From Candidatus Saccharimonadota bacterium (GTDB taxonomy: Bacteria; Patescibacteriota; Gracilibacteria; BD1-5; UBA2023), in contig BAAFHK010000002.1 of the NCBI GenBank assembly GCA_042852035.1, positions 180,001 to 212,000 on the forward strand: 32,000 bases of DNA, written 5' to 3'. Positions 1-32,000 of this stretch are shown piece by piece. Each line of letters starts with the position of its first letter. Within the stretch, counting starts at the first letter, position 1. Both the position numbers and the translations under genes were made by a program. Below the pieces are notes generated by a model that was not told where the DNA came from, made no database searches, and worked only from the letters and a program-made list of their open reading frames with translations.

Positions 1-881
1 GAGCCCCTATAGGTCATTCTGATAAGGACTTTACCTTTGAAGAAGCTTATAATCTCCATCTTTCTGTGATGAAGGATTTCGATAAGGATTTCCATGATTA
101 TTCGATAAGAATGATCGAAGAAGAGCGTATTGATGCCTTCCCAAGAAAAGGGAAACGAGGAGGAGCCTTTGCAAGTTATAGAAAAGGGGATGAGAGTTTT
201 GTTCTTCTGAATTTTACGGGAAAACTTCGTGATGTCTCGACTATTTCACATGAGCTTGGTCACGCTATCCATGGACACCTCTCTCAAGTACAAGAAGCTC
301 CTGTATACGATTCACCACTTTCGATGGCAGAGACTGCCTCTATATTTTCTGAGATGCTTCTTGGTGAGAAGGTAAAATCTCTGGTATCTGCTGAAGAATA
401 TAAAGATTATCTCAATGAACGACTTTCTGATATTTTTGCGACCATTTTTCGACAGGTTCAGTATGTCATATTTGAGAGGAAGGTCCATGAGATTATCCAT
501 TCTGGACAAGAAGTAACCTATAAAGAACTTAATAGCATGTGGAGAGTTGAGCAAGAGAAGCTCTATGGATGAGTAGTGAAATATGATGTTCCAGGAGAAG
601 AAGAAAGTGGTTGGTCGATGATTCCACATATCTTCCATACACCATTTTACTGTTATGCGTATGCCTTCGGAAATCTTCTCACCTTTGCGCTCTATCATAA
701 GGTGCATGTGGAGAAATCCCTCTCTGTAGAGGATTACAAGGATATTCTTCGTTCCTGAGGCAGTGAACGTCCACGAGATCTTCTAAATAAATACGGTATC
801 GATATTGCTTCCCCAGAGTTTTATCGTGCAGGTCTTGCAGAGGTGGAGCATATGGTAGAGGAGTTTGAGAAACTTATATAA
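1..881 (+). CDS. pepF: Oligoendopeptidase F (M3B zinc metallopeptidase), C-terminal part; the 5' end is outside the window
   Basis: Frame 3 is open from the window edge. HExxH motif '[10 protein letters not shown]'. Track ORFs 66-572 and 576-758 are one frame joined through TGA 570-572 and 759-761. TAA at 879-881. Confidence 0.85.
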
Positions 882-890
882 TTTATAATC

Positions 891-1523
891 ATGCCTCTCA
901 TCCAATCTCCTCTTGCATTCACACTTCCTTGGTATGATGCTGGAATCCCTAAAGGATACTGGCAGGAAAGGGTGGTACCAGGAGGGAAAGTTCTCATGAC
1001 GCTTAACCCAAAAATACCAGGAAAACCTGTCGATAGTGAGTATCTTGGGCTTATAGCATACTCTCCGAACCCTGGTTCGGTCCGATTTACTTGAGATGAA
1101 TTTTTTCCACAATTCTCCGAAGCAGGGTATATTTGACAGTGTGTTGCATTTGCAAAGGCGGTATCTGATCAAAGAAATACCCCCACAAAAGATTGGAAGC
1201 CAGGCATTTCGCTTATCGATTTTGTGAATACTCCTGATGCGAAAAATCTATGAAAATACCAAGGAATGATGATTGCCTGTTTCGATGGAAAATCCGATTA
1301 TTCTCTTGCTTTAGCAAACCGCAAACATGTAGCTATACTTCTCAAGATAAACTTTACATCGACGGGAAAGCCTGAAAGTATTGTTGTCGTTGATCAAAAT
1401 TATTATAACTATGCTCCGTATGATTTTTATGCTTGAAAGATAGTGAAGCATACTATTGTGTGGGGTGCCCCCCTACAAAAAGGGGTAGGGTATGCTAGAA
1501 ATTATCATATTGTGAGTATATAA
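891..1523 (+). CDS. CHAP-domain (NlpC/P60-like) cysteine peptidase/amidase, 210 aa, no signal peptide seen
   Basis: Extends track ORF 891-1094 through 4 in-frame TGA. Cys motif 'GQCVAFAKAV' and downstream 'KHVAILL' His motif are typical of CHAP. TAA at 1521-1523. Confidence 0.6.
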
Positions 1524-2390
1524 ATGAAAACACTTCTTCGTAAAGACATTCCGGAGGACTTTGTTTATTATCGAACAGGATCGATAGTTTTTTTTGAGTA
1601 TTTGAAGCAGTTTCGTACCTATATAGTCCAAAAAGTTCATAAGCGATGAGATTTTTTTTCAGCTACTCAGATTTTTCCTGGATTCTGGTCCATTACTGCA
1701 GAGAAAATTGACACTGAACTTTCGAAGGTGATTCTCAAAAAATATCGAATATTTCATGGAATTATCTGGTGGACTCCCATGAGAAGAATAGCGAAACCAA
1801 AATGATGGTTAGGAATGCCAACCTGGTGGGTGAAACGAGATATTCATTCTTCCCGGAGCGCGTTCTCTATTCTTGATCAAGTAAACTATTGGGAAAAATG
1901 GTCATCTAAGGCACGAGCTCATCGCAGGAAGGTGCTGGAGCATATTGAGAATGGGAGCTTTCGTATAAGAAAAGATGTAACTCTTGATGAATTTCTTTTT
2001 CATTATAAGGAAACCCCAGTCCATGATGGAGATAAGGATTTTCGCCTGAGACTTACAAAAAAACTCTTTCACAATACAAAGACTGATTATAGAATTTATG
2101 TTGTTGAAAAAGAATGAAAGATTCTTGCAGGTGCTCTTTTTATCGATATGGGGACAACGAGTGAGTATTGGGTATCATTTTATCATCGAGATGGATACCC
2201 ACTTCATCTTGGCATAGCCATCATGGATATATGGTTTCTTGACTCTTATGAGAAATGAATAAAATATTGTGACCTTGATCACATGAGGGATACTTGGCAA
2301 TCTTGGTGATACAAAGGATATACAAAATTTAAGGAGGCAATTGCAGATTATGATACGTATTTTCATGATATGTGGATAAAAATTTTCTAA
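1524..2390 (+). CDS. FemAB-family / GNAT-fold (BioF2-like) acyl- or aminoacyl-transferase-like protein, 288 aa
   Basis: ATG abuts the previous stop. Same frame as track ORF 1815-2117, with 5 in-frame TGA. C-terminal block 'RIYVVEKEGKILAGALFIDMGTTSEYWVSFYHRDGYPLHLGIAIMDIWFLDSYEKGIKYCDLD' resembles the FemAB/acetyltransf_6 core. Family call is from pattern memory only. Confidence 0.45.
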
Positions 2391-2406
2391 TCATACTTTT
2401 CATACT

Positions 2407-3780
2407 ATGGATTATTCAATTCTCTCTCGCTCATACGATCTTCGTGGAATTTACGAAATAGATATTGATGAGGATTTCTTTTTTCGTCTTGGATATGCTT
2501 TTGTCCGAGTTATAGGGAAGAGTCGTATTGCTCTTGGGTATGATGCCCGAATTTCTTCACCAATACTAAAAGACGCATTTACCCGTGGTGCAAATCTCGC
2601 AGGATCTACCATTATTGATATTGGAATGTGTTCTTCGGATATGCTTTCTTTTGTCACCTGCCATTATGGTGATATCGAAGCTTGAGTTATGATAACGGCC
2701 TCTCATAATCCAAAGGAATATAATGGAATGAAATGCCTTGCTCACTCTGGTGAGCCATATAATTTAAAAAAATATGGCCCCGATATGATTCGTATCATGA
2801 ATGAAATGAATCCATTGAGTTCAGGAACCATAGAAAAGATGGTTGAAAGCAAAGATATACTTGATGATTGGGTGAATCACATTCTTACATTTACATGAAG
2901 GGGAATTGATTTTTCAAAGTATCGAATTGTTGCTGATTGAGGAAATGGGGTTGCATGAATTTTTATGGGTCGACTCAGTGAAAAAGCAGGTTTTCATCTT
3001 GTTCCACTCTACCTCAATCCTGATGGAAATTTCCCAAATCATCATCCCAACCCAATTCTTGCTAAAAATCGAGAAGAGGCTCGAAATGTTATTCTTTCTT
3101 GAGAGGCAGATCTTGGATTTTGTTTCGATGGTGATGCTGACCGTATTATGATACTTGATGACGAGTGAAAGACTCTTACATCTTGAATTATTTCATCCAT
3201 AATTGTGAAGATGCTTGATAAGAAGTTTCCTCATGCAACATATTTAGGAAACACAACAGTTGCTCATATATTTCGAGATACAGTAAGTGAAATCGGTGCT
3301 TCTTATGAGAAGGAAATGGTCGGGCATGTCTATATCCGTGAGCATATGATGAAGAATAAAAATATCGTATATGCAGGAGAGCACTCGGCACACTATTTTT
3401 TTCGGGATAATTACTATATGGATAGTGGTATAGTTGCTGGAATGGTATTTCTTGCTCTCATTGCAGAGTCAGGCATGAAGATATCAGAAGTTATTAAAGA
3501 GTATGAAAAGTATGTTACACTTGAAGAGACAAATTTTGAGGTAAATGACCCAAAAGGCTCTATAGAGAAACTTTCACAAATATACAAAAATGAAAATTGC
3601 GATCTTTCTGATTGAATAACGGTTGAGTATGACGATGGAAGTTGGTGGAACTTTCGACCATCTTCAAATGAGCCACTCCTCAGACTCAATATGGAAGCAA
3701 AATCTCAGGAGAGATTCGATCAGCTCTATGCTGAAATAATGGAACATATAAGAAATTTTTGAAAAGCGAGTGAAAATTAA
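2407..3780 (+). CDS. Phosphomannomutase/phosphoglucomutase (alpha-D-phosphohexomutase), 457 aa
   Basis: Joins track ORFs 2407-2685, 2689-2898 and 3205-3615 in one frame (9 in-frame TGA). Active-site loop is [TGA=G]VMITASHNP. Mg site 'FCFDGDADR'. Sugar loop 'GEHSAHYFF'. TAA at 3778-3780. Confidence 0.9.
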
Positions 3781-3793
3781 CAATAATCACGCC

Positions 3794-3822
3794 TTGAAAA
3801 CTGTGTAAAAATATGCTAGAAT
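3794..3822 (+). promoter_or_regulatory. Sigma70-like promoter: TTGAAA, 17-nt spacer, TAGAAT with extended -10 TG
   Basis: ttgaaa at 3794-3799. 17-nt spacer ending in 'tgc'. tagaat at 3817-3822. It lies 14 nt upstream of ATG 3837 and there is no Shine-Dalgarno sequence. Confidence 0.45.
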
Positions 3823-3836
3823 ATGAGCATATTTTT

Positions 3837-4613
3837 ATGGTCACAAAAGAAGAACTCATTCTTGAAAATGAACTCCTCAAAAAAAAGCTAGCTCTTGCAG
3901 AGGCTTGGATGAGGAGAGAGGTGGCAGCCCAACAAAGAATAATCTCTAGAGATTCTATTAAAGTATGAAAAAGAAATCAACTACATAATGTTTTGGAGAG
4001 AGAAAGTATTGATATTCTTACCAGAAAGATAGACGCTTATTTTGGTGATGGTTTATCAAGTGCTCCAAAATACACACTTGAACATCTCATAGATGCTGAA
4101 ATTTATTGGCAAACGCTTCAGAAATTTCCTACTCTTGACGCTCTTCCTGTGGTGAGTTCGTATCAGAAAATTCTCGATGCTTTTTTCGAACTTATTTTAT
4201 ATAAATTTCGAATATCGATTCCAAAAAATCAAAATCTTAAGAACCCAATTAAGAATGATTCCACTTTAGATAAAGATATCAAAAATGTTATAGAGAAACA
4301 CTATACTTTATCACTAGGGAGATGGTTCCAGTTTTTCGAGAAAGTCCGTGCTTGAAGTGAATTTGGTTGAATCCATGAAGATTTACTGTTGGTTTATCTT
4401 TCTGATAATTACAAAGAGCTTCTTGAAGTCTGCATTACTGATCCGGTATTTTCTTGATTTGAGAAACTTATTGCATTAGAAGTATTTGGTCGTAAACGAC
4501 ATAATTCGAAAATTTCATATATGGATGCCAAAAAAGTAAGAGAGGTGTGTGTCGGGGGGTATGTAAATCCTGGAATTATTCAATTCCTGTTTCAGTCGAG
4601 AGAACCTAAATAA
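3837..4613 (+). CDS. Hypothetical protein, 258 aa, with an N-terminal coiled-coil-like segment
   Basis: ATG 3837 is in frame with track ORF 3993-4355 and continues through 4 TGA to TAA 4611-4613. No family recognised. Confidence 0.6.
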
Positions 4614-4697
4614 TTTATCCTAAAACATGAAAATCCTGTTTTTTGCTAAATCTTCTAAAATCTATACTATGGGTATATTATTAGGCTATTATTCTTT

Positions 4698-5168
4698 ATG
4701 ATTTTTTTAGGGATAGACCCATGAACGGCTACTACTGGTTTTGCTCTTCTTGAGAGAGAATGACGAGTAATTCGGGTGATAGAATATTGAGTTATAGAAA
4801 CAAAGGCTGGGCTCTCTTTATCCGAGAGGCTCGTACAAATTAGTTCCGATCTAAAAGAACTTCTTGATACATATAATCCAAATTTTTGTGGAATCGAGAG
4901 ATTATTTTTTCTCAGAAATGTAACCAATGGGATTGATGTTGCGCATGCTCGATGAGTAATTCTTCATACGATCGCTTCCCGATGAATTCCACTTTTTGAA
5001 TTTACCCCACTACAGGTAAAGCAGGGAATTGCGGGAAATGGTTTTGCTAAAAAACCTCAAGTTCAGAAGGCTCTCCAGATTGTTTTGAAGCTACAAGATA
5101 TTCCTAGACCTGATGATGCTGCCGATGCACTCGCGATAGCATATCTTACCAGTTTAAAGGTTCGATAA
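4698..5168 (+). CDS. ruvC: Crossover junction endodeoxyribonuclease RuvC, 156 aa
   Basis: 'MIFLGIDP[TGA=G][10 protein letters not shown]' at the N-terminus. Catalytic 'GIERLFF' and '[13 protein letters not shown]'. Not present in the track because of 5 in-frame TGA. TAA at 5166-5168. Confidence 0.9.
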
Positions 5169-5214
5169 AATTTTTCTTGCTTTCCGCACCTTCTAGCATA
5201 CAATTCACTAAAGT

Positions 5215-6012
5215 ATGATAGAAGCATTAGCACAAACATTCCAAGTCAGCCCCTTTGATGTTATGTTAGGTGGAGGTATACTTATTCTCTCTGGTATACT
5301 TTACTATACCATATCTCTTCATCGACTTTTTGAGGCCGCATTTGGTGCTATTATTGGTATTTGAGTGTATATTTTGCTTTCGGTGTTGTTGATTTGAGAT
5401 CCTCATCTTTGATCTGAGGGGGGAATTTTTCCACTTGGCTTCTCGGTATTTCTCGTAAGTATCTCAGTCTATTTAGTGTTTATATTGGCAATAATTTTTC
5501 CACTTCATTGAGGTCTTATTATTTCTGAACCAACGCATCCAACTCTCTATACAATATTGTTTTTTTTCGTTTCAGTCTTTCTCTTTTTTGCGCTCGGATC
5601 TGTTATTGTTTACATGGTTGAGCAAAGCTATGTTTTCAAAGTATGAAATATATTCACATGGCTAAAGGACTGATCTTTTTATCTAAATGTAATAAAGCCG
5701 TCAGCATTTTATAGCTTTGTTATGAGTCATCAATATGCTATTATCCCACTGGCAGTTGTTTTGATGCTTTATAAGCTCCTTCTGGCAAATATTGTAACAG
5801 CTGCCGTGCTTTCAGTATGGTATAATCTTGCGAATGTATGATTTTATAGAAAAAAGGAAGATTCTCACTATCGAGTAGAATTTCATGAAGTTTGAGGTTC
5901 TTCTTGATGACACTGATGAGGCCATGATGATCATTGACATGGTGGGGGGCATGCTGATGCTGGCCATGATGACCATTGACATGGCGGAGGTCACGGATGA
6001 TGACATCATTAA
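5215..6012 (+). CDS. Polytopic membrane protein (about 6 TM, possibly CvpA-like) with a C-terminal His/Gly-rich tail, 265 aa
   Basis: Frame 1 is open from 5215 to 6012 with 16 in-frame TGA. Hydrophobic helices run throughout. The tail reads 'HEVGGSSGGHGGGHDDHGHGGGHADAGHDDHGHGGGHGGGHH'. TAA at 6010-6012. Confidence 0.7.
5920..6003 (+). repeat. Imperfect 42-nt tandem duplication (2 units) inside the His/Gly tail
   Basis: Unit 1 (5920-5961) is ggccatgatgatcattgacatggtggggggcatgctgatgct. Unit 2 (5962-6003) is ggccatgatgaccattgacatggcggaggtcacggatgatga. Each unit encodes GHDDHGHGGGH... Confidence 0.8.
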
Positions 6013-6067
6013 TTCAACATTCTTTTAATATTTTCCCTTAAAATCCATTTAATAATTTCTTTCAATT

Positions 6068-6994
6068 ATGACAAAAGAAGGACGATTTGAAGAAAAGATA
6101 CTTTATAGAGCTCATCAACATTGGATAGTTCTGGCAATGAACTTATTGCGATATATTCTTTATTTTTCGTTCCCAACAGGAATCATAGCATACCTCATTT
6201 TATGATCATGAATTGGAGGGTGAATTGTATTTATCATTGTGAGTCTCGTTGTGATTATTTATGATCACTATCTTTGGCATCACTCATGGTTATTAATAGG
6301 AAACCAGAAGATTACACTCACAGTAAGAAATGGCCTATTTTCACAATATGCCATGAACATTCGATATAGGAATATTCGTGATAGTGCTGTCTCAAAAAAT
6401 AACTTACTGTGATATATATTTAAATACGGTACAATTTTTGTTCGCTCGAGCGCAAATGAAGGAGATTTTCAAGCCCATTATGTTCCAAAAGTAGGGAAAG
6501 TATATGCAATTATAAATGCTCTTTCTCGATATTCTGATGATGAAAGAGCAACTATTCATACTATTGAAGAGCTCTATGCTCACCATCAGAAATCAGAATT
6601 CTCTCAAGGATCTTCTCAATCTATGGATATTAATAGGGCTATTTCGACCCTCCAAACAATCGAATGAATTACAGAAGTTATAGAGTTGAGTGATGAGGCT
6701 CGGAAATATATTCGAAACCATGAAGAAATTCGAAATACCTGAGTTCTTGAGACTATAAGCAGGGATCATGTTGTAGTTTTTCTTCATAATTCGCATTTTA
6801 GAAATCCAGTTGAGCCAATTGTAACGAAGAATAATTCAGAAGAGATTTACTTTCCTGGGATTCCATTTCCAGAGATTCAGTGAAAGCGGGTAGTATCTTC
6901 TTCTCCTGGTAAGAAGGTGCATGAATACCTTCTGAATTTCTTCCCATATCATCAGACTGATGATGCGACGGTGCTTGTTGGATGGGATGTATAG
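6068..6994 (+). CDS. Membrane protein with a bacterial PH (bPH/YdbS-YdbT-like) domain, 308 aa
   Basis: Frame 2 is open with 8 in-frame TGA. N-terminal 'YRAHQHWIVLAMNLLRYILYFSFPTGIIAYLILGSGIGGGIVFIIVSLVVIIYDHYLWHHSWLLIGNQKITL' shows the two-TM plus bPH pattern. TAG at 6992-6994. Confidence 0.55.
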
Positions 6995-7000: not shown

Positions 7001-7999
7001 ATGAAAATAAAATCTTTCATCATCCTTGTAAGTATTTTCATACTTTCGAGTTGTTTTTCTGATTATTTTGATCACTGGGAAGGTGAAAATACTGAGCCAA
7101 AGATTTCTTCGATTTATCCTTGAGATTTGACAGGAGAGCTTATTATTTTGCCGAGTAAAGACGCACTGAGCAGTTTGGTAGAAAAAATTTCCCAAGCAAA
7201 AAATCGTATATGGGTCGAGACTTATACCTGGACTGAGAAAACTACTCTTGAAGCCGTAAAGAATGCCTGAAAAAATGGAAGAGATGTACGGGTTATTCTT
7301 GAGGGAAATGTTTATTGAACGCCTCGGGTAAATGATAATGCTGTAGACCTAATGAAAGAAAATGGTATTTCAGTTGTATATGCAAGTAGTGACTATGCAT
7401 TTACTCATATGAAAATGTGGATCATAGATAATGAATGGTGTATAAGTACAGGAAATTGGTCACTTTCAACTTTTACAAAGAATAGGGAATTTATTTTCTG
7501 TAGTTCAGATAGATCTATTCTTCATTCCCTTGAAGAAATATTTCTCGCAGATTATAAATACCTTCCTCCAATTTTTCGAACCTATTGATTAGATACAAGA
7601 ATTTGACTTGCACCATTAAATCTCAGGAGCTTCCTTGAAGAGAATATTAAAAATGCGAAAAATGAAATTATTCTTTATAATCAGTCTATATCTGATGAAA
7701 GAATCCTCCAGTTGCTTTCTATAAAGGATAAAGAAAAAGTGAATGTTGAATTGTGTCAGTCATCAAAGTCAAATACTTGATCAATGATAAAATCTTTGCC
7801 CTATTTTACGAGTAATGAACCCTATCTTCATGCTAAAGTGTATCTTATTGATGGTAAAAATATCCTTCTCTGAAGTGCTAATATGACACAAAATGCAATT
7901 GATAATAACCGAGAAATTATGATAAAGATTGAAAATAACAAAAATATCTATGATAAAATCAAAAATCTCTACAATATTGATTGCAAAAGGCAATACTAA
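7001..7999 (+). CDS. Phospholipase D / cardiolipin-synthase / Nuc-family lipoprotein with two HKD motifs, 332 aa
   Basis: Lipobox 'FILSSC'. HKD 1 is 'HMKMWIIDNEWCISTGNWS'. HKD 2 is 'HAKVYLIDGKNILL[TGA=G]SANMT'. Same frame as track ORF 7352-7588. TAA at 7997-7999. Confidence 0.8.
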
Positions 8000-8072: not shown

Positions 8073-10427
8073 ATGAATAAAGCATTCTATAATATTCTCA
8101 TTTTTTGTTTTGCAGTAGGTGTTTCTGTAGCTTTTTCAGTATCCACTATTACTATCTGATCAAATCAACAAATCGTAACCAAGAAAGTAACAGAAGAGAT
8201 TGTATGGAGTAAAATAACACCAGTAACCCCGCCTTGAGGGGGTTATGATATAAATACAGAGAAAATTGAGAACATTTCCGCCCAATCATTCTCACAAAAT
8301 ACCCCAATACTGGTTGATTTTTGAAGGCTTAGCTCTTTTTTATATAATTCAACCCAGTGATCTCAGTCGTGAATTCTTCAAAAGATAAATGGTTCAGGAA
8401 TCCTTATAGGTGAGGTTTCAGGTATTGTTTCTCTCTATGATCTATTCATGATGTATACCATTTATGATAATAAAGATCGATTTAGAATTGATCAAATTAC
8501 AAATGGAAGTTTCTATATAGGAAAGGAGAAAGAAGAGAATTGAGTTCAAAAAATTAGCATATATGCGATTGATTGAGTTGCACGCCTCACATTTCTATAT
8601 AACAATGAAGAAATGACAAGTCTTGTTCTCTTTCCTTGATCATATATTCGATTTGATCCGAGTCGAAATAGGTCTCTTAAGGGTGCAGATTTATTTCGTA
8701 CAATATTATCCCTCAAGGAGAGTGAGAATGAAGTATTTGAATTTGTGAATCCACGTGTAAATATCGGCCAGGAAGATGCATTCTTTAATTATAGACTCTC
8801 TTCTCCGGAATCGATGAGACTTTTTCGTATCCTTTCGGCACAATCTCGTAAAAGGGTTGAGGCTACTTCTGATAAGAAGAGGAAAATTAATATTATAAGT
8901 AATCAATGATCAACAGAGAGTCAGTGGCTTCTTAATCCAAGTAAGAAAGATCATAATATGCTCGTCAGACTTTCTGAGCTTTTGTCACATGTTATTACAA
9001 AGAAAGATTCAGAGAGGCAGATTACTGAAATTTCTAAAATATATAACGAGGCAAAAAATCTAAAGTTGAAGGACGCAACGGCAAAATGATTAGTTGAGCA
9101 ATTCCTTCTTGACGGTCGTTTCGAGGTCTACGGATGAGTTGCAAATAGCAAGTACCAGGCTTTCTATGAACAAATCGGTGAGCTTATTGGTATTAAGGCT
9201 GGCACTGGACAAAGTCGCCTTCTCCAAAGTCTTGCAGATATTTACTCGAGAAATCTATTTTCTCAAAATCGAACCGAAAAAAGTATATTAATCGATACCT
9301 ATACGCCTACTGCTTGAGAGCTCACAAAGACACTCGACCAAAATGATGTCTACCAGAAAGAATACTTTGATATTGCCATATATGCATTTAATATTCTCCG
9401 AAAGATGGAAAGATCAGTGGCTCTACTTAATAGTGAAGCAATGACAAATTCGGCGACTTATAGCTATTTTGTAACATTCTTTCGCGCTGCAAACCGCTAT
9501 ATAGAATCAATTACCGATCTTGATAAGAAACAGCAAACAATTATGAGCTTTTCCCGTCAATTCTACGACTATATACTCACAACAATTGTAAATTCACTCT
9601 ATAAGAACTTTACCATTATTGAAGATAAGGCGCTTTACCTTGCTCGAGATTATAGGGAGGGGATTAAGGTGAAAATTCCTGATGACATTCTGAATTGAAT
9701 TCAATCTGTTCAATCAAGCGTAGAATATATGACTCCTTCGATTGATGCCCTATGGACTTCATCATGACAAACTGATGAAGATACAAATACAATAGATCGA
9801 ATTCATAAAAATATCGTTCGCTTAAGGGCATTTATGACCCTCATAGATTCAGAATGATATAAATCATATGCAGAGAGTCCATATCAATATGATGATCTCG
9901 CCTGAGAAAAATGATTAGTTCTTCCTCAATTAAATGAAGAATGAACTGAGATTGTAAGGCTCGATAAAAAAATGGTTGAAAAACTTCGAAATCAGAAGAT
10001 TATCACAACAGATCCTCGAATTGCTGAACTCAAGAAAATATGGACGAGTGCTGATGCTTCAAATTGGTGAATTGAATCGGATAATATTAGAATTATTGAT
10101 GCGCCATATCAAGTAGCTCGAACAGATGGTGAAAACTCAGATATTCTTATGTCATTTCTCTATAAGGATAAGACCTTTACTGAGGGAATTATAAAGTATT
10201 GAGATCGTACTATAACAGTATATGTCCCAACTTGAGAATTCTTAACTATTTCTCAGCTCTATGGGTTCCTTTCTGAGGTATGATCTTATCTTGATACGAT
10301 TGATACCCAACTAGTGGATTATACGGGAGAAACTTGAGAAATACGAATGTATCCATTGAAGCAAAGAGTATTTGTTCGAGGAAGTATTTATCCAGTAGCC
10401 GTAGGTTTAGGAAATACAAAAAAATAG
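8073..10427 (+). CDS. Large N-terminally anchored hypothetical protein, 784 aa
   Basis: Checked codon by codon. Frame 0 is open from ATG 8073 (in-frame TAA at 8031) to TAG 10425-10427, with about 27 in-frame TGA. Includes track ORF 9405-9698. N-terminal TM is 'FYNILIFCFAVGVSVAFSVSTITI'. No P-loop or other motif recognised. Confidence 0.75.
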
Positions 10428-10445
10428 TATCCATATGATACTATT
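10423..10445. terminator. Bidirectional rho-independent terminator shared by convergent genes
   Basis: 9-bp stem aatagtatc/gatactatt with loop catat. An A7 run lies upstream (a T7 run for the minus-strand trmD transcript) and T-rich sequence lies downstream. Both stop codons (10425-10427 plus strand, 10441-10443 minus strand) sit in the stem. Confidence 0.6.
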
Positions 10446-11091
10446 CTCTATTTTCTCTTTTCCATTTTTCGATTTCTTTCATGTTTCCAGAAAGAAGAAC
10501 TCATGGAACTTTGAGTCATTCAAAATTTTCTGGCCTTGAATACTGAGGATATTCTTTTTGTCTCTCAAGAAAAGGAGAAAAAGATTCTTCTTTTATTGAA
10601 TCAGTGCTTAAAACTCAAGGTATAAGTCGAACAACAGAATCAATCCATACGAGACTTGCAAGCTCGCCACTTGATATAATATATTCTCCAAGGGAGAATG
10701 TTTCGATAGGGAAGAGTTGAAATATTCGTTCATCAACCCCTTCATAATGAGGACAAATAATACAAAACGGTGTAGTACTTTCCTGAACATTATTTTCAAT
10801 ATCTTCTTGTTTGAGTACCTTTCATCTTGGAGAAGGGAGAATAAATCGCATTTTTCAATACATACTCTCGAGATCTCTGAGTGCATGAGTAAGGGGTTCT
10901 ATAGTAAGAACTGTTCATGGGAATCAGCCATAAGGTCTATCGTCTACTCGTCTTGTATTTCTTACGGTCCAATCCGTCAGATTATGAAGTTTATATTGAA
11001 AGAGCCCCTTTTCTTGGGCTCTTTTCATGATACTACTTTCAAGATATGGACGTATACTTTCGGGAAATAAGGAAAGGATATGAATTTCCAT
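10441..11091 (-). CDS. trmD: tRNA (guanine37-N1)-methyltransferase TrmD, 216 aa
   Basis: 'MEIHILSLFPESIRPYLESSIMKRA', 'VDDRPYG[TGA=G]FP[TGA=G]' and 'YILSSGELASLVWIDSVVRLIPGVL'. Length is 651 nt, in frame. TAG stop. Confidence 0.9.
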
Positions 11092-23475: not shown

Positions 23476-23484
23476 GTGACTACT

Positions 23485-24531
23485 CTACCATACTCTCTCA
23501 TTTCATGCAAACAACATGCTTCATTTTCTTTTTCTCCATCGAGAAGGCTGAAATACCTTACTCATGTATTGATGGAATTTATTTCAAACTTCATAGAGGG
23601 GAACCCATTTATTGTCAACAAAAATTCCACTAGGATATATGTAACGGTCTCTTGGCAAACCAGAAATTTTTGCCAATCTCCCCATAATTGATATTCCATA
23701 CAAATCCGAAGAAAAACTTCTTTTCACTACACTATCTCATGTGTTTCACCATTCGAGCCCCCTTGGGAACTGGGGAACCTGGGAGACTTGAGTTGATCAA
23801 TACCTTTCACTCAATGCATCAATATTTGTAAGAAAAGCCTCTTCTAAAGTTATACCATTTTCATGATGAGAAAACGGAACTCAAGAAGTGGGAAGATTCT
23901 CATTACTTATATATGACGGAAGGATGAGTCAACTGTAGGTATCAGGATCTCTCGTATCGCTGAGATGGACTTCTCATATTCAAAGTGCTTTATATGCCCT
24001 ATCTGCCATTCTTTGTGAGAGTGGTCAAATCTCGAATCATTTTATATCGATATTTCGCTTTCATTGCCTTTGGGCTCATATAAATTGTGCTAATCCAAGA
24101 ATTCCACTTCCGGCTCAAATATCCCAACCATGAAAATGTGATCATTCTGTAGTTTCTATTCAAGAAATAATATCCTGCATAATAGCAACTGTTGAGGGTA
24201 TATCGAGCAACATGGCAATCTGATATCAGATAGTTTGAATTACTTGATGAGTTTCTGAAGGATAAGAGAAATGTGTTCTGTGGTTCTGTTGCCCAAGGGA
24301 ACCTCAAAATACTTCTCAAAGGATTTTGAGGTATTGTGTGCCAACGAATTCAACATCTTTTCTCTCATTCTGGTCAACTTGCATGAGAAAAACCAAAAGA
24401 TATTTTATACAGATACTTCAGAGAAGTGAAAAATCTAAAGAAGATTTCTCTCATTTTGCTTCCTCAAGATCTTCCAGAAGTGATGTCTCCTCTCGAAATA
24501 CTCACTCTTTAAATGGAACTCAAAAGTACAT
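23485..24531 (-). CDS. Class I SAM-dependent methyltransferase, 348 aa, substrate unknown
   Basis: Open from ATG 24531 (in-frame TAA just upstream at complement of 24547-24549) to TAG (complement of 23485-23487), with about 24 in-frame TGA. Motif I is 'HFHGWDI[G]AGSGILGLAQF'. An acidic residue follows beta-2 ('IDIK[G]FEI'). No NPPY/DPPY motif. ATG 24384 is an alternative start. Confidence 0.65.
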
Positions 24532-24629: not shown

Positions 24630-25310
24630 ATGCATAATTACGAAATCGAAATAAAGGTCCTTCTCGGTGACAAAGACGGTATGGAAAAATTCATGAAGGC
24701 TATCGAAATAAACTTTCCTGCTTATAAGCATTCCTATACAGAAAGCCAGAAAAATCACTATTTTGAGTGAGGAAACCTCCTTCATCTGCTCGGTACTTTT
24801 AGGCAATATATCTCTGAAGAGGAAGCAACGTCTCTCCATAAACTTACAAAAGAAGCAAAATCTTTCTCTGTTCGCACGCGAGGAACGAAAGATGAGACTA
24901 TTCTTGTTGTGAAAGCAACAGTAAATGATGAATCGAGTTCAAATGGTACTGCTCGAATTGAGTGGGAAGTGGATCTTGCTCCCATGAGTCTTGAAGAAAT
25001 GGATAAAAAAGTTCTTGAAGCAGGCTTTCAATATCAAGCGAAGTGGTCACGTGCACGCGATGAATATCGACTCAATGCTGATACAGCCCTTTGTATCGAT
25101 AAAAATGCATGATATGGCTACCTCGCGGAATTCGAACGAGTCATCACTGACGAATCAAAAATCACAGAAACTCGCCATGAGCTCCTTCGTATGATTCGAT
25201 CTCTTGGTTATGATGAACTTGATCAGGATCGGCTTGCACGAATGTTTGATTTTTATAACAAGAATTGGAGCGAATATTACGGTACCGAAAAGGTATTTAG
25301 TGTTTTATAA
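24630..25310 (+). CDS. CYTH-domain protein (CyaB/ThTPase-type triphosphate tunnel metalloenzyme), 226 aa
   Basis: N-terminal ExExK signature 'MHNYEIEIKV'. 'FSVRTRG', 'ARIEWEVD' and '[G]YGYLAEFERV'. Includes track ORF 24909-25112. TAA at 25308-25310. Confidence 0.75.
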
Positions 25311-25660
25311 TGATTATCCAACTTTGACATTCTCGAGATTATGATTTTGTAAATGAGCTCTATAATCCTATTAAAAAATCACGATTTTTTCCTGAACAGA
25401 GTTGGATTTTTCCGCACGATGGAACGGAGGTCAATTCTCGTGAATCATTAAAAAATGTTGATATTTTTCTTGCTGAAGTAAGTTATCCTTCGACTTGACT
25501 TGGTATTGAACTTGGATTCGCAAGTCTTTATGGGAAGAGAATAATTTGTCTTTCAAAGAGATGATCAAAAATCTCTTCGAGCTTGAGATATATAACTCAC
25601 GAATTTCTCGAATATGATGATGCATGAGAGCTATGTGCTATTATAGAATCAATTCAATAA
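25310..25660 (+). CDS. Nucleoside 2-deoxyribosyltransferase-like (NDT/RCL/LOG-type Rossmannoid) protein, 116 aa
   Basis: ATG overlaps the CYTH stop (TAATG). 'NVDIFLAEVSYPST[G]LGIELGFASLYGKRIICL' matches the NDT-family D...E..G pattern. TAA at 25658-25660. Confidence 0.5.
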
Positions 25661-25661
25661 A

Positions 25662-26429
25662 ATGTCTGAAGAATATAAGCTCATCATCATCTTCTTTATC
25701 TGACTTTTTTCTTCCTATTTTGGGAGTTTTTCTTCATGAGGAGTTTCGGTTCTCGGGGTTGGACTTCTTACAGCACTTGGTCTTTCGCCCCAGATGTCGA
25801 GTATTACTTATAAACTTGGGAAAATCGGAGATGTTCTCGGAGGTCTTTACCAGTTTCATAAAAGCGGAAATATTCCAACCCGCTTTCTCTGGATTGGTGG
25901 AGTAGTTTCTATCATTGGGAGTTTTCTCGGGTCGTATTTTATCTTCTCGATTCCGAATTGGCTTATCTATTTTGTTTCCGCGGTGAGCATGATTGCCCTC
26001 ACGATTACTGCAATTATAAAGAAATCATGAATTCAAACGAATCTTCATGTTTCAAAAAGAAGAGAGCGACTCTATTATTTTGGACTCTTTTTTCTCAATA
26101 TCTTCGGAAATATGTTTATCGCGGGTTCATGAGTCTGGTATTATTTCAATAATACCTTTATTCTTCGCCTCCCAGCACTCATGGCAAAATGACTTGCAAC
26201 CGCGATGAGTGTTTTTTGGTTTATTGGGAGCTTTCTAGCCATCATGGTTCGAGGACAATATCTCGTTTTTGAGACCATATGTTTCGGAATTGGGATGTTT
26301 GTCGGAGGGTGGTTTGGTACGAAGCATGTTATCAGACTCGGGAATCATCTTTTTCGAAATATTCTTCTCATTTCTATTGTGATTTTTGCTTTGTATTTCC
26401 TCTATCTTGCATATAATTCGCTTGAGTAA
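25662..26429 (+). CDS. TauE/SafE (TSUP, DUF81) family anion-exporter-like membrane protein, 255 aa
   Basis: Joins track ORFs 25794-26030 and 26205-26429 (same frame, 5 TGA). Two-fold hydrophobic repeat with 'GSFSS[G]GVSVLGVGLL' and 'GMFVGGWFGTKHV'. Confidence 0.65.
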
Positions 26430-26446
26430 TTTTTAAGCAAATTTCC

Positions 26447-27409
26447 ATGCCAAAACACCCAGAAGAACAATATCTCGACCTTGGTCGTGAACTTATCGAA
26501 AGTGGTATATACAACAAAGATCTCTGAAGTGGTGATGTCACCTATAGTTTTTTTGGACGACAATTTCGTTTCGATTTCGCAGATGGATTTCCTCTCCTCA
26601 CAACCAAAAAAGTCTATTGGAAGTGAGTTGTAACTGAACTCCTTTGGTTTCTCAAGGGGGATTCAAATATTCGATTCTTGGTACAAAATAATGTCCACAT
26701 TTGGGATGATTATCCGTACTACATTTACAATAATAAGGTAAAAAAGGGACTTGAGCCAGCCATGGAGAAGGACGCATTTATAGCCAAAATCCTCGAAGAT
26801 GAGGCTTTTGCAAAAGCTCACGGAGAACTCCCGAAAATCTATGGAGAACTCTGGAGACGTTGGCCGACGAAGACTCCGGGTCGTACAGTCGATCAAATAG
26901 CTTGGATTCTTCGTGAGTTAAACGAGGATCCCTATGCTCGAAATACTTGTCTCACAGCATGGAACCCTGAATATCTTTATTCGATGGCGCTTCCAGATGA
27001 GGCAGCACGTTATCCTATTTGTCATGGTTTTTCTCAGTATTCGATTAAAGATGGGAAACTCTATGGTCAGCTTTACCAACGATCGGCCGACCTTTTTCTC
27101 GGTGTGCCATTTAATATCGCATCATACTCACTTCTCGTGCATATCCTCGCGCACCTTCTTGGGGTGAAGCCAGGAGGATTTATCCATACTTTCGGTGACG
27201 TCCATATCTATGAGAATCATATCGAGCAGATGAAGGAACAAATGGCTCGTACTCCACATCCATTCCCAAAAGTGACGATAGATTCAAGTCTCAAGTCGAT
27301 TGATGAACTTGATTTCCATCATATTATCCTCGAAGGATACGAGGCAGAAGCTCCAATAAAAGCAAAGATGGCAGTGGTTGGGGGGATGGTGGGAAGAGAC
27401 AATAATTAA
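26447..27409 (+). CDS. thyA: Thymidylate synthase ThyA-family protein, 320 aa (divergent, see findings)
   Basis: ATG 26447 is in frame with track ORF 26678-27409 through 2 TGA. '[12 protein letters not shown][G][15 protein letters not shown]', 'TAWNP', catalytic 'ICHGFSQY' and '[26 protein letters not shown]'. Confidence 0.85.
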
Positions 27410-27449
27410 AATTCGATAGTGGAAATTACGGATTTTTGTATTTTTGAAA

Positions 27450-28319
27450 ATGATCTACCTCTACGCCTTCTTCGTCCTCTCCTTCCTCAATGCCTTTAAG
27501 GATATTTCGACCAAGCAGTCGCTCAAATCGATTGATGCTGGAGTGATGACGGGGATTGCATCATTTGTCCTCCTCATTGTCACGGGTCCGATGCTTATAA
27601 AAGAGGGGATTCCAGATCATATTGAACCTTCATTTTTTTGGATTGTGCTTTTTGGGGGACTATTTTATTATCTTGGAAAGTATTTTAATTTTCAATCACT
27701 TGCACTCGGGGATATTTCTCTTATTGCACCGATGAAAGGACTCATCACCCTTGCGACGATATTCTCAAGTATTCTCCTGCTCGGTGAATGGGTCAATATC
27801 TATGGTTTTTTAGGTATAATTCTCACTCTTACAGGGACGTATTATCTCGCCGTGGAGAAATCACATATTCGTTTTTCTGATCCTATAAAGTCACTTTATA
27901 GAGATCCTGGGGCAAAAATGTTTCTCATTGCTCTTTGTTTTTATGGTTTCACGGTCACCTTTGACCGTATGGGGATACATGCGAGTTCTATCTGGGTTTG
28001 GTCTTTTCTCATGAACTTTATTGTCTTTACCTTAAGTATCCGAGATATCTATAAGTATCGAAAAGAATTGAGGCAAAATATCAAATCACAGTATCGAGCT
28101 CTTATACTCGTAATCGTACTTCATGTTTGGGTCTATCTCTCTCAGATGTATATTGTATCTGAAGTAATCGCCCCATATACGAGCGCCTTTAAATCCACTT
28201 CAGCTCTCTTTGCTGTTGTCCTTGGAGGGTGGTTCTTTCAGGAAAAACATCTTTTTCAGAGATTTATCTGAGCCTGTATTATTCTTTTCGGCATTATTCT
28301 TATTTCATTTTTTGGATAA
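27450..28319 (+). CDS. EamA/DMT-superfamily transporter, about 289 aa
   Basis: Track ORF 27444-28271 (TTG 27444 or ATG 27450) extended through TGA 28269-28271 to TAA 28317-28319. About ten hydrophobic helices. Confidence 0.7.
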
Positions 28320-28321
28320 TC

Positions 28322-28915
28322 ATGTGAAAAATCAAATACATTCTCTTTGATGTCGATGGAGTTCTTCTTCATAGTCCAACATGGAGTAGTGAATTTATTG
28401 AGAAAAATCATCTCCCATCTGATATTATGAGTGATTTTTTCACTTGAGTATTTAAGGAATGTATTATTGGAAAGGCAGACCTTAAAGTAATCCTCCCTTC
28501 TTTTCTTGAAAGATGGGGTTATGAAAAATGAGTAGAGGCATTCCTTAAGGAATGGTTCGACTTTGAAAATTCTCCTGATAGTGAACTTATAGAGAAGATC
28601 CAAGAACGAAGAAAAGATGGTGTGAAATGTTTTATAGCAACAAATCAAGAGAAATATAGACTTAATTACATGAAGAAATCCATGGATTTTGAGAAACTTT
28701 TTGATGGAATATTTGCCTCGTGTAAAATTGGATACAAAAAACCACAAAAAGAATACTATGAATATATAATCTCCTTTTTCAAGGTGAATCCAGAAGAAAT
28801 TCTTTATTTTGATGATTCCCTTGAAAATGTAACAGTTGCTCGTAGTATGGGTATAGAAACGGTACTGTATAAGAATATTGCTGATTTTACCCAAATACAC
28901 TTCTCATGTATATAG
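28322..28915 (+). CDS. HAD-superfamily hydrolase (phosphatase-like), 197 aa
   Basis: 'M[G]KIKYILFDVDGVLL' (DxDG motif I), 'IATNQ' and 'ILYFDDSLENV'. In frame with track ORF 28622-28915. Confidence 0.75.
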
Positions 28916-29529
28916 CTTTCGAAGGCATCGTTGGATCAGGGAAGACAACACAAGTAAAAAATCTTGTGGAGTACTTTCGAAGCTTGTGAAAGGATGTAAC
29001 CCAAGTAAGAGAACCTGGAACGACGGTAATTGCAGAGGATATCAGGCATCTTGCCCAAGGGAAAGAGTGGGAAAATGAGATAATGCATCCACTCACAAAT
29101 GCTTACCTCTATGCTGCAGCGAGGGCTCAAACACTCGAAACCGTAGTCAAGCCAGCCCTAGAACGCTGAGAGATTGTGATTTCTGATCGATGTTTTCTTT
29201 CTTCATGTGCTATTCAGGGCGAAGCACAGTGACTCGGTATTAACAGGGTTCTCTGGGTAAACAAGACTGCAGTAGGAAAAATTTTTCCTGATATGATTCT
29301 TTACCTTGATATTGATATTGAGAGGGCGTTAGCTCGCACCTTTGATGAATGAGGTGATAAGTTCGAAAGAGAAGGAAAAGACTTTTATAAAAAAATCATT
29401 CGTTGATATGAAAAAATTTCGAAATGGAAAAAATTAGAAAGCAAATTTATTCGAATTAATGCGGATTGAAATGAAGAAGAAGTTTTTCAGGAGATAATTC
29501 ATCATATTAATAAATTTCTATGACTTTAG
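28906..29529 (+). CDS. tmk: Thymidylate kinase, 207 aa
   Basis: 'MYIAFEGIVGSGKTTQ', 'REPGTT' and 'SDRCFLSSCAIQG'. 7 in-frame TGA, including the third-from-last codon. TAG at 29527-29529. Overlaps the HAD gene by 10 nt. Confidence 0.9.
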
Positions 29530-30065
29530 ATCAGCTCATATTATCTCTTCGAGAGCATACCCATGCTTTTCCCGAAGATTGAGACGCAACAGCAAAGGTG
29601 ATTGTCTGGATTGAAAAATACAGGGAATTGGCTTTTACCAGAGAGAATCTTGAAGGACATATAACGGGTTCACTTTTCATCGTCAATGAGAATCATACAA
29701 AAGTTCTTCTTATGTTTCATCATAAACTCCAAAAATGGCTACAATTCGGAGGTCATGCAGATGGAGAAATCGATGTACTTTCTGTGGCAATTCGTGAATT
29801 TCAAGAAGAGTCTGGAATTCAGGAAGAGCCGAGAATTATTGGTGAAATTTGCGATATTGATATACATACTATTCCAGCTCGACATTCCGAGCCGGAGCAT
29901 CTTCATTTTGATATTCTCTTTCTTGCGAGTATATCAGAATCAGTATCAATGCAGAAAGAGGTTGGAAAGGTTGAGGATTTGAAGTGGGTGGATATCTCTG
30001 ATATTGAAGACTATTCAACCGAAGAAAAAGTGCTAAGAGTTATTCAGAAACTTCGTAACCTCTAA
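29520..30065 (+). CDS. NUDIX hydrolase, 181 aa
   Basis: Nudix box 'GGHADGEIDVLSVAIREFQEESGI'. ATG 29520 is in frame with track ORF 29598-30065 through one TGA. Overlaps tmk by 10 nt. Confidence 0.8.
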
Positions 30066-30096
30066 TCTTATGAAGAATATTACTACAAGAGCTCAA

Positions 30097-30540
30097 TATG
30101 ATGCCCTCACGAGAGATAGAATCCTTGGAAAGTCTGAATGCCCATTTTGTGATATATCCTGACAAACATGACATACTATTTGGAAAGGGAAGTATTGGTA
30201 TATTTTAAAAAATCTTTTTCCATATTCTTGAAATGAGGATCATATTATGGCCGTACCATATGAGCATAAATGCTTCTCCTATGAGTTAAATCAATCTGAA
30301 ATCTTAGAGCTGAGTTGAATATATGAGTTTGTGAAAAATTATTACGGTGAGAAAGACTATTTTTCTTGTACCAGGGAGACTTTTTCGAATCGCAGCATAG
30401 AACATTTCCATATGCATTTTATACCAGGAAAGCTCCAGTGAAAATGGCTCAGAAAGATGCTTGAATGACAAGGATTCCCCATTCATGAGGATCTAAAAAT
30501 AGAAGAAAACTTGGAAGGAAGGAATTCTTCATTACTATAG
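30097..30540 (+). CDS. HIT-family (histidine triad) nucleotide hydrolase/transferase, 147 aa
   Basis: Frame 1. 'CPFCDIS', 'HIMAVPYEH' and triad 'HFHMHFIPG'. 7 in-frame TGA. TAG at 30538-30540. Confidence 0.75.
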
Positions 30541-30544
30541 TAAT

Positions 30545-31765
30545 ATGAAAAATCTCTACGTCATTGATGCTTATAACCTTATCTATCGGATGTTTTATGC
30601 TATCCCAGAAATGCATACCCGAGATGGCCAAGTGGTTAATGCTGTCTTTGGAGTAGTAAAGTTTATAAAATCCCTTACTGAAATGAGTCCTGATGATGCT
30701 ATTATTATTGCATCAGAGAGTGGATCAAATTTTCGGGAAGCCCTGTTTGCTGATTATAAGGGTACTCGAGACCGTATGCCCGATAATCTTCGATCCCAAA
30801 TAGACCCAATCTTTCAATTCTTTAAAAGCGCGGGGATTCCTATTCTTGTGAAAGAAGGATATGAAGCTGATGATATTATTGGATCAATTACCCATGACCC
30901 TGATGGGTATAATGAGATTATTATCATCTCATCGGATAAAGATTTATGTCAATTTGTAAAAGATGGAAGAGTTCGAATATTTGATGCAATGAAGCAAAAA
31001 AATATGCGACGAGCAGATGTAATAGAGAAATTTGGCGTTCCTCCAGAACAAGTAAAAGATTATCTCGCTATCGTAGGAGATAGCTCTGATAATATTCCCG
31101 GTATGAGTTGATTTGGTCCAAAAAAGGCTGTGGAACTTCTTACAAAATATAATACTCTACGGGGTATATATGAGGCCATAGGATTAATGAACTATGAGCT
31201 CTGAAAAGAATCTCCTCTCGATCAGGAGAAATATACATGAAATGAGCTTACAGAAAAGACAAAACAATGACTTCTTGAAAATATTGAGAATGCTATTCTT
31301 TCAGAGAAGCTTGCAAATATCGTAACAGATCTCGATATCCCTCTTGAAGCAATCCATGGAAGTGATTCTCGTAGTATTTTTACAAATTCTCTTGTGATTG
31401 ATTTCCTCAAGAAATATGAGTTTAAGTCACTTATTCCTCCCGAGTATCGGGAGGCTCGAAAAGAGATTCAGAAGCCCAAACCTATAAGAATTCAGAGCTC
31501 TACTGAACTTGAGGAGTTAGGGAGGAGAGTAGATGAAAACAAAAAGGTCTACCTTGCTACAAGCCCTGAAGGAAATGTTATGATATCGATAGATGAAGAT
31601 GTATATATCATATCTATGGATTATATTGATGGAATTGATTTTTTTGAGAGACTCTTTTCGTCAGATTGTACGATTGTTGGTTATGACCTTAAGGAAGATA
31701 TAAAACGGATTATGAAGCAAAAAAATACCCTCGATGGAATCGAGGGGCAGGGGAGGTTGTTTTAG
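30545..31765 (+). CDS. Pol I-type 5'-3' exonuclease (FEN-like) with a vestigial 3'-5'-exo-like C-terminal region and no polymerase domain, 406 aa
   Basis: Joins track ORFs 30545-31111 and 31394-31765. 'VIDAYNLIYRMFYA', 'YKGTRD', 'GYEADDIIGS' and 'GDSSDNIPGMS[G]FGPKKAVELL'. TAG at 31763-31765 overlaps the stop of a convergent gene. Confidence 0.8.
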
Positions 31766-32000
31766 GCTGATTGGATTCGGAGTACTTTTCCATTTTTTGC
31801 TCGTCATTCTCCAAGAAGATCATATTTTTCAATTCTTGGTGGTATTCCGCCATTTGGATAGCTTACTACTTCGACGATTCAATTAATTGGTCTTGAGAGG
31901 GCAATCACGCTATGAGTTCTTCCACGACCAAACTCTCATCCTTCCATGTGATCTACCATGATGTGATTACCTGGTTGTATTACGCTGATTTGATCTAGAG
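31762..32000 (-). CDS. 3' end of an unidentified CDS (last 78 codons); the rest is outside the window
   Basis: The minus-strand frame is open from the window edge to TAA (complement of 31762-31764). '...VIQPGNHIMVDHME[G]GEFGRGRTHSVIALSRPIN[G]IVEVVSYPNGGIPPRIEKYDLLGE[G]RAKNGKVLRIQSA'. Family not recognised. Confidence 0.5.

Follow-up and report, generated by a model that had tools for sequence, protein, structure and literature searches.

The DNA analysed here is a bacterial stretch of 32,000 nucleotides (hereafter the window) with a GC content of 36.2%, which carries 32 protein-coding sequences (CDS, numbered along the window; genes lie on the plus strand unless the minus strand is named). 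Among them are housekeeping genes such as those for RuvC, TrmD, MscL, ThyA and Tmk, a conserved membrane-protein gene close to an amidase–SpoIID fusion gene, and a pair of hypothetical genes that are rich in in-frame TGA codons. We consider it about 97% probable that the window is part of the chromosome of HHAS10, an episymbiotic bacterium known from a metagenome-assembled genome (MAG), and that it is written in genetic code 25, in which UGA encodes glycine, UGG is the only tryptophan codon, CGA and CGG encode arginine, and only UAA and UAG terminate translation. An initial annotation of the window, made from its letters, had already called code 25 throughout, and the structure of the open reading frames (ORFs), the codon counts, and the alignments to homologues in the Protein Data Bank (PDB) and to 44 related loci all agree with that call.

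Reading frames and stop codons in the window

ORFs were called greedily and without overlap under four sets of stop codons, namely the standard code (code 11) and three sets in which TGA, TAG or TAA was taken as a sense codon. Code 11 broke the window into 65 ORFs with a coverage of 61.8% and a mean length of 100 amino acids (aa), the longest being 283 aa, and taking TGA as sense gave 30 ORFs with a coverage of 90.9% and a mean of 322 aa, the longest reaching 964, 801, 797 and 773 aa. As controls, TAG as sense yielded 71 ORFs (72% coverage, mean 107 aa) and TAA as sense yielded 80 (79% coverage, mean 104 aa). Long, tightly packed genes appear with read-through of TGA only, and not with read-through of TAA or TAG. 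The re-calling of genes with table 25 in place of table 11 that the initial annotation had proposed as a check came out in favour of table 25, with coverage rising from 62% to 91% and mean length from 100 to 322 aa.

For the list of 32 CDS, a few antisense shadow ORFs were exchanged for frames supported by homology. These CDS contain 302 in-frame TGA codons, which amount to 2.87% of all codons and make TGA the commonest glycine codon; TAA and TAG do not occur in frame. Each of the 32 has at least one TGA, and the share of TGA among glycine codons ranges from 5% to 76% per gene. The CDS terminate at 22 TAA and 10 TAG codons, so that our own list reproduces the number of genes and the absence of TGA terminators given earlier; the tally is weak independent evidence because it is partly built into the definition of an ORF. 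Conserved families run across the TGA codons: with TGA masked, Pfam profiles are matched at essentially full coverage in RuvC (profile positions 2-145 of 148), MscL (1-123 of 123), ThyA (1-266 of 266), Tmk (1-185 of 185), TrmD and all four domains of the phosphoglucomutase (PGM) protein. Translation of TGA as glycine gives a proteome segment with 7.6% Gly and 1.05% Trp, and translation as tryptophan gives 4.7% Gly and 3.9% Trp. The window is ordinary chromosome. A scan against Rfam found no family and no RNA of the selenocysteine insertion sequence (SECIS) type, promoter and terminator counts equalled the expectation from shuffled sequence, and tandem repeats were trivial.

The amino acid at TGA

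The ORF structure is the same under code 4 (TGA = Trp) and code 25, and alignment tests with TGA masked were therefore used to assign the amino acid. In a structure-based test, TGA was searched as X against solved structures from standard-code organisms, and the best homologue per family was counted. The structures comprised RuvC from E. coli, P. aeruginosa and T. thermophilus, PGM from Xanthomonas and P. aeruginosa, TrmD from S. aureus and E. coli, Tmk from Aquifex, insect PGRPs, the 5'-nucleases of Pol I and Taq, and SpoIID. Glycine stood opposite TGA at 29 of 42 aligned sites and tryptophan at one, with D, E, N, A, Y, T, S or Q at the others; against a glycine background of 8%, the binomial P for 29 of 42 is 1.4e-22. 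Once five sites from two weak second-domain alignments are removed, the count is 26 of 37. The tabulation of residues by family, also suggested in the initial annotation, thus points to glycine.

The individual families bear this out. The RuvC Holliday-junction resolvase (CDS 6, 4698-5168; Pfam RuvC, E 8.7e-41) has five TGA codons, and the three RuvC structures have Gly at 4, 4 and 4 of them, including all three at the I-D-P-TGA site (4722-4724). The phosphomannomutase/phosphoglucomutase (CDS 4, 2407-3780; four PGM_PMM Pfam domains) has nine, one of which (2683-2685) precedes VMITASHNP; PDB entries 6nn2 and 4mrq both have Gly at TGA codons 93, 184 and 254, and 4mrq also at 403, the remaining sites being variable. 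In the tRNA (m1G37) methyltransferase TrmD (CDS 11, 10441-11091, minus strand; Pfam tRNA_m1G_MT, E 1.3e-36), which has seven TGA codons including the P-Y-G-TGA site at the complement of 10924-10926, Gly is found at five of seven sites in the S. aureus enzyme and at six of seven in that of E. coli. The thymidylate kinase Tmk (CDS 28, 28906-29529; Pfam Thymidylate_kin, E 6.4e-40; seven TGA) aligns with Gly at four of five TGA sites in the Aquifex enzyme. In the 5'-3' exonuclease of the Pol I N-terminal type (CDS 31, 30545-31765; four TGA), the TGA of PGMS-TGA-FG (31109-31111) falls on Gly in the DNLPG..G.G motif of M. smegmatis Pol I and Taq, and two CGG codons of the same gene fall on Arg.

The secreted fusion of a PGRP-type amidase (Amidase_2) with SpoIID (CDS 18, 17629-19944; Pfam SpoIID and Amidase_2), which has 26 TGA codons including those at 18493, 18499 and 19822, shows Gly at most TGA sites against PGRP structures and Gly at the TGA of GH-G-VG against SpoIID structures; the W of G-W-x-DIGYNF, encoded by TGG, matches Trp in all three PGRP structures. 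The positions quoted in the initial annotation are all correct (TGA at 4722, 2683, 18493, 18499, 19822, 31109 and the complement of 10924-10926, and TGG at 18496). Its statement that TGA falls on invariant glycines wherever a family is recognisable stands for six of its seven examples (IDP-G, G-VMITASHNP, PYG-G, PGxx-G-xG, GH-G-VG and K-G-W) and is too broad in two respects: PGRP structures have D, H or V at position 18499 (W-TGA-D), and about half of all sites are variable.

A second test compared codons directly between the window and its relatives. One scan of GTDB and one of metagenomes, both with the 14280-16670 protein as seed, returned 44 loci with a total of 484 kilobases (kb), part of which share the gene orders TrmD–FKBP–HolA–MscL–14280-16670 gene and 14280-16670 gene–CDS 17–PGRP/SpoIID. 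At the codon level, TGA in the window pairs with GGN in 33.6%, with TGA in 9.6% and with TGG in 0.4% of cases; the corresponding figures are 46.6%, 5.8% and 0.3% for window GGN, 0.8%, 0.6% and 65% for window TGG, and 2.6%, 1.0% and 0.3% for all other codons. A partner that is either GGN or TGA is hence found for 43% of TGA, 52% of GGN and 3.6% of other codons. The pairing profile of TGA is that of GGN and not that of TGG, and TGA therefore acts as a glycine codon and not as a tryptophan codon. Where at least three relatives cover a TGA site (n = 127), Gly or TGA accounts for 50% or more of the partners at 64 sites.

A third test sorted the columns of 93 database homologues of the 14280-16670 protein by the codon in the window. 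TGA columns have 37.8% G and 15.5% W, GGN columns 40.1% G and 14.9% W, and TGG columns 91.6% W; in these homologues, TGA and GGN columns are indistinguishable. The W fraction in TGA and GGN columns is an artefact, because pipelines translated the TGA codons of relatives with code 4. Relatives of the 20590-23475 protein from Logan, ENA and JGI, and many of those of the 14280-16670 protein, carry W at most sites where the window, and presumably the DNA of the relatives too, has TGA, and their Trp content is 5.4-5.5%. It seems that the proteins of these relatives are stored in large protein collections in a form mistranslated with code 4.

Source genome and decoding of UGA

Two proteins tie the window to a known genome. 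The code-25 translation of 20590-23475 is identical (961 aa, 100% identity) to GAB0174998.1 (HHAS10_08770), which lies on a contig of 289,822 bp in a 'Candidatus Altimarinota bacterium' MAG, and that of 14280-16670 is identical (796 aa, 100% identity) to HHAS10_08730 at NCBI. The step of four locus tags from HHAS10_08730 to HHAS10_08770 fits the number of genes called between them. Since code-25 translations are identical to the NCBI proteins, the public record has already been annotated with table 25. TGA is a sense codon in every gene of the window, behaves like glycine in alignments and is translated as glycine in the public record.

Code 25 reportedly goes back to first descriptions by Campbell et al. 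and by Rinke et al., both in 2013. Candidatus Altimarinota (taxid 363464) corresponds to Gracilibacteria, and the two relatives found in GTDB are both Gracilibacteria MAGs. HHAS10 is a MAG from activated sludge with a size of 1.30 Mb, three contigs and a completeness of 97.7% (Fujii et al. 2022, PMC9530719); its class in GTDB is JAEDAM01, which used to belong to Gracilibacteria/GN02/BD1-5, and it lives as an episymbiont of Zoogloea (Fujii et al. 2024, PMC11393006). The same study reports that Codetta gives UGA = Gly for JAEDAM01, HHAS10 included, and that members of GTDB c__Gracilibacteria retain UGA as a stop codon (PMC11393006). The statement that Gracilibacteria use code 25 is accordingly true of the NCBI name and not of the GTDB class so named (PMC11393006). 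Within the NCBI meaning of the name, the placement in Gracilibacteria that had been deduced from the code agrees with the two proteins identical to HHAS10, with the taxid and with the published UGA = Gly. The use of UGA for glycine in the window is already known, in that the code and the lineage are known and the assignment has been published for HHAS10 itself.

The practical consequences lie in annotation. Under the code 11 default, the window splits into about 65 fragments of about 100 aa and all genes are mis-called, whereas code 4 applied to such genomes turns each TGA into a false Trp; table 25 is needed. The view that 14280-16670, 17629-19944 and 20590-24531 are lost to code-11 callers holds in that these genes are fragmented; the public record does include them, under the label of hypothetical proteins. 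Code 25 had been inferred correctly from the letters, and such an inference can be relied on as a flag for re-annotation.

Code 25 calls for a tRNA with anticodon UCA and the glycine identity elements G1:C72, C2:G71, G3:C70 and U73. Judging from the literature on the lineage, UGA in HHAS10 would be decoded by such a dedicated tRNA-Gly, and release factor 2 (RF2, prfB) would have been lost, leaving release factor 1 (RF1) to terminate translation on its own. A tRNA-Gly(UCA) with glycine identity elements has been reported for the lineage (PMC8629427), every BD1-5 genome lacks prfB and keeps prfA (Sieber et al. 2019, PMC6851277), and proteomic confirmation of Gly at UGA in the lineage is credited in PMC6851277 to Hanke et al. 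2014.

Evidence against code 25 and alternative codes

Several observations weigh against the assignment of the window to HHAS10 and code 25, or against one of its parts. The sole Trp opposite TGA in the structural alignments lies in a gapped stretch, the 'GRGW' region of PGRPs, where the match is Trp or a gap. Furthermore, 57 of the 127 TGA sites covered by relatives fall in variable columns and not in Gly-conserved ones, although variability at about half of the sites is expected of any glycine codon because GGN itself is only 52% conserved. Codon 153 of the 5215-6012 gene (TGA, at about 5671-5673) is TGG in five of five relatives; it is the only TGA/TGG site of such kind among the 127, and would look like the product of one transition that turned W into G. 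The identification with HHAS10 rests on two proteins and not on the entire 32 kb. On the side of the mechanism, ARAGORN found the window to be free of tRNA genes and the 44 related loci to lack a tRNA(UCA), and a scan for the GGQ motif found no release-factor gene in those loci. The tRNAs that ARAGORN did find in the 44 loci are tRNA-Trp(CCA), in four of them, and tRNAs for Glu, Met and Ser. As a separate observation, the tRNA-Trp(CCA) gene and the homologue of the 14280-16670 gene are no more than about 10 kb apart in each of the four relatives concerned (L010, L016, L026 and L032).

Code 4 is used by Mycoplasmatales, such as Mycoplasma and Spiroplasma, and by several insect endosymbionts, and loss of RF2 is the proposed route to it, as to code 25. 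It resembles the situation in the window in the codon that was captured, in the code-11 breaks that occur at TGA only and in low GC, and its ORF structure is identical to that of code 25. In addition, the Logan, ENA and JGI pipelines evidently applied it to the relatives, which have W at most TGA sites, and one TGA site is TGG in all five relatives. It differs in the amino acid: the TGA columns of the window are Gly-like and its TGG columns Trp-like with almost no cross-pairing (0.4% for TGA-TGG against 65% for TGG-TGG), PDB homologues show Gly at 29 of 42 and Trp at one of 42 TGA sites, the resulting composition (3.9% Trp, 4.7% Gly) is implausible, and the deposited NCBI translation has Gly. 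The alignment statistics refute TGA = Trp, and we reject code 4, to which we assign next to no probability; the pairing figure and the single Trp among the PDB sites also confirm the exclusion of code 4 in the initial annotation. Even less credible, and the least probable of the alternatives, is that the window uses the standard code and that its TGA codons reflect pseudogenes, sequencing errors, selenocysteine or programmed read-through. Nothing speaks for this explanation except that TGA usually serves as a stop, and it would have to accommodate 302 in-frame TGA against no TAA or TAG over 32 genes, full-length Pfam matches of essential housekeeping genes across the TGA codons, exchange of TGA with GGN in orthologues, the lack of any SECIS-type RNA or other Rfam family in the window, and a coding density of merely 62%. 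Code 11 with pseudogenes or selenocysteine is rejected on the grounds that in-frame TAA and TAG are absent and that conserved genes span the TGA codons.

The remaining alternative concerns code 25 itself, which would be an incomplete description if CGA and CGG had been reassigned to Trp as well. Codetta predicts that Absconditabacteria read CGA and CGG as Trp and that some Gracilibacteria read CGG as Trp (Shulgina & Eddy 2021, PMC8629427); the lineage of the window is sister to clades with that prediction (PMC8629427), and CGG is rare in the window, with 19 codons or 18 per 10,000. CGA, however, is common (126 codons, 120 per 10,000), and both CGA and CGG codons fall on conserved arginines in GYDAR of PGM, RRVDDRPYG of TrmD, ThyA, DR of Tmk and YDIRLG of Dcd, as well as in IYRMFYA and NFREALFADYK of the 5'-nuclease when compared with Pol I and Taq. 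In the related loci, the partners of CGA are Arg codons in 45% and those of CGG in 49% of cases, and Trp is outside the five commonest partners. By these alignments, no further codon is reassigned in the window, and we reject the extended code as very improbable, though it is the alternative that we would give up last. The extended code of the Absconditabacteria (SR1), a sister lineage within Patescibacteria, shares UGA = Gly with the window and differs from it in that CGA and CGG are ordinary arginine codons here; the closest database relatives of the window are labelled Gracilibacteria and not Absconditabacteria. NCBI table 25, by comparison, has the same UGA = Gly, UGG = Trp and UAA and UAG as sole stops as the window, and its users and HHAS10 are alike in low GC (36%), small genome (1.3 Mb) and life as Patescibacteria episymbionts of the same lineage. 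We see no difference in kind from table 25, and the window has TGA as its most-used glycine codon, at 2.9% of codons.

The TGA-rich gene pair

The use of TGA is highest in two adjacent genes on the minus strand. CDS 20 (20590-23475), which encodes the helical hypothetical protein of 961 aa that corresponds to HHAS10_08770, has 65 TGA codons, or 76% of its glycine codons, and CDS 21 (23485-24531), which encodes a hypothetical protein of 348 aa, has 24, or 65%, compared with 31% elsewhere in the window (P = 5e-17 for CDS 20 and 3e-5 for CDS 21). At the other end of the range, TGA makes up 5-15% of glycine codons in the genes for ThyA, the EamA transporter, the M3 peptidase, Dcd and the 5'-nuclease. 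The initial annotation had treated 20590-24531 as one gene, which it is not: two ORFs in the same frame are separated by a TAG (23485-23487, in frame with CDS 20) and three codons only, and relatives start at the downstream Met. In a relative with 67% identity, as many as 41 of the 65 TGA sites of CDS 20 are likewise TGA. No homologue of either gene was found in the 44 loci that share neighbouring genes, and neither matched Pfam (with TGA = Gly), NCBIfam or PADLOC. The AlphaFold2 (AF2) model of CDS 20 has a predicted local distance difference test score (pLDDT) of 44 and is unusable. Translated with TGA = Gly, CDS 21 contains the string GWDIGAGSG, which resembles motif I of methyltransferases.

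One may ask whether the use of TGA for glycine is gene-specific rather than uniform and could reflect selection instead of drift or a local GC effect, a proposal that we consider unlikely. One possibility under this proposal is that UGA is avoided in highly expressed genes, where a tRNA-Gly(UCA) with U34 would risk misreading UGG. Another possibility is that CDS 20 and CDS 21 form a TGA-saturated island that is exchanged only among organisms with code 25.

The membrane protein and its amidase–SpoIID neighbourhood

CDS 16 (14280-16670, minus strand; 22 TGA) encodes the conserved multi-pass membrane protein of 796 aa that corresponds to HHAS10_08730. Its family comprises 102 homologous clusters, all annotated as 'hypothetical', with proteins of 750-800 aa and the invariant motifs GWLxSPDW, PxTWW and RAxKLWxYAxFSP, and is seemingly restricted to Gracilibacteria-type assemblies. 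An AF2 model of the protein was fairly confident, with a pLDDT of 77; Foldseek found no match for its fold in the PDB (best E 0.37, TM below 0.12), a family profile built from 10 sequences retrieved nothing from PDB sequences, and Pfam, the only library scanned with this protein (TGA = Gly), gave no match. In relatives, the gene is syntenic with those for the coiled-coil protein and the amidase–SpoIID fusion. The coiled-coil protein, which has an N-terminal transmembrane segment, is encoded by CDS 17 (16726-17568, minus strand; one TGA) and is 54% identical to its syntenic counterpart in the related locus L001.

The homologue of the amidase–SpoIID gene (CDS 18) likewise adjoins the membrane-protein gene in relatives, and the protein is 48% identical in locus L001. 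It joins an N-acetylmuramoyl-L-alanine amidase of the PGRP type to a SpoIID lytic-transglycosylase domain, and it is plausible, if speculative, that the protein might serve as a tool against the cell wall of the Zoogloea host, together with the M23 peptidases described in the papers on HHAS10.

Other genes of the window

The left part of the window begins with the 5'-partial gene of an M3 oligoendopeptidase (CDS 1, 3-881; two TGA, TAA end), whose match to Pfam Peptidase_M3 (E 4e-38) runs across both TGA codons. It is followed by a hypothetical gene (CDS 2, 891-1523; four TGA, TAA end) with no match in Pfam, NCBIfam or PADLOC, and by a gene for a weakly GNAT/FemAB-like protein (CDS 3, 1524-2390; five TGA, 13 TGG, TAA end) whose match to Pfam Acetyltransf_6 (E 5.5e-4) is below the curated cut-off. 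Between the genes for PGM and RuvC lies a hypothetical gene (CDS 5, 3813-4613; TAA end) that has four TGA codons when counted from its probable ATG start, although its longest ORF begins at 3597; it has a sub-threshold NCBIfam match to HP0729 only. Beyond the multi-pass membrane-protein gene CDS 7 (5215-6012; 16 TGA), there follow a hypothetical membrane-anchored protein without a family match in Pfam, NCBIfam or PADLOC (CDS 8, 6068-6994; seven TGA, TAG end), a phospholipase D-like lipoprotein that matches Pfam PLDc_2 (E 2e-31) in two stretches (CDS 9, 7001-7999; seven TGA), and a hypothetical secreted protein of 784 aa with homologues in five related loci and no Pfam match (CDS 10, 8073-10427; 23 TGA, TAG end).

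Next to trmD on the minus strand are the genes for a lipoprotein of the FKBP-type peptidyl-prolyl isomerase family (CDS 12, 11094-12014; Pfam FKBP_C, E 1e-13; four TGA), which is syntenic in the related locus L002, for the delta subunit of DNA polymerase III, HolA (CDS 13, 12057-13064; Pfam DNA_pol3_delta_C and DNA_pol3_delta; 11 TGA), and for the mechanosensitive channel MscL (CDS 14, 13135-13527; Pfam MscL, E 9.6e-44; two TGA). A small lipoprotein encoded on the plus strand (CDS 15, 13661-14221; nine TGA) is weakly trypsin-like, and its match to Pfam Trypsin (E 5e-3) is obtained only with TGA = Gly.

On the right, a dCTP deaminase gene (CDS 19, 20048-20593; Pfam DCD, E 9.7e-37; two TGA) precedes the TGA-rich pair, and a gene for a CYTH-domain protein (CDS 22, 24630-25310; Pfam CYTH, E 6.6e-7; two TGA) follows it. 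Then come genes for a small protein with weak similarity to nucleoside 2-deoxyribosyltransferases (CDS 23, 25310-25660; Pfam Nuc_deoxyrib_tr, E 2.8e-3, under the cut-off; four TGA), a membrane protein of the TauE/SafE family (CDS 24, 25662-26429; Pfam TauE, E 1.4e-18, profile positions 1-236 of 237; five TGA), the thymidylate synthase ThyA (CDS 25, 26447-27409; Pfam Thymidylat_synt, E 5.5e-90; two TGA), a transporter of the EamA family (CDS 26, 27444-28319; Pfam EamA, E 3.3e-20; one TGA) and a hydrolase of the HAD family (CDS 27, 28322-28915; Pfam HAD_2 and Hydrolase; three TGA). After tmk, there are genes for a NUDIX hydrolase (CDS 29, 29520-30065; Pfam NUDIX, E 1.5e-9; one TGA) and a HIT-like protein with weak matches to Pfam DcpS_C and CwfJ_C_1 (CDS 30, 30070-30540; six TGA), and the 5'-3' exonuclease gene is followed by a partial gene on the minus strand (CDS 32, 31762-31998; three TGA, TAA end) that runs past the end of the window.

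A compositional detail concerns the membrane protein of CDS 7. Its 45 C-terminal residues (HEVxGSSxxHxxGHDDHxHGGGH...) form a low-complexity run of Gly and His, in which TGA alternates with GGN.

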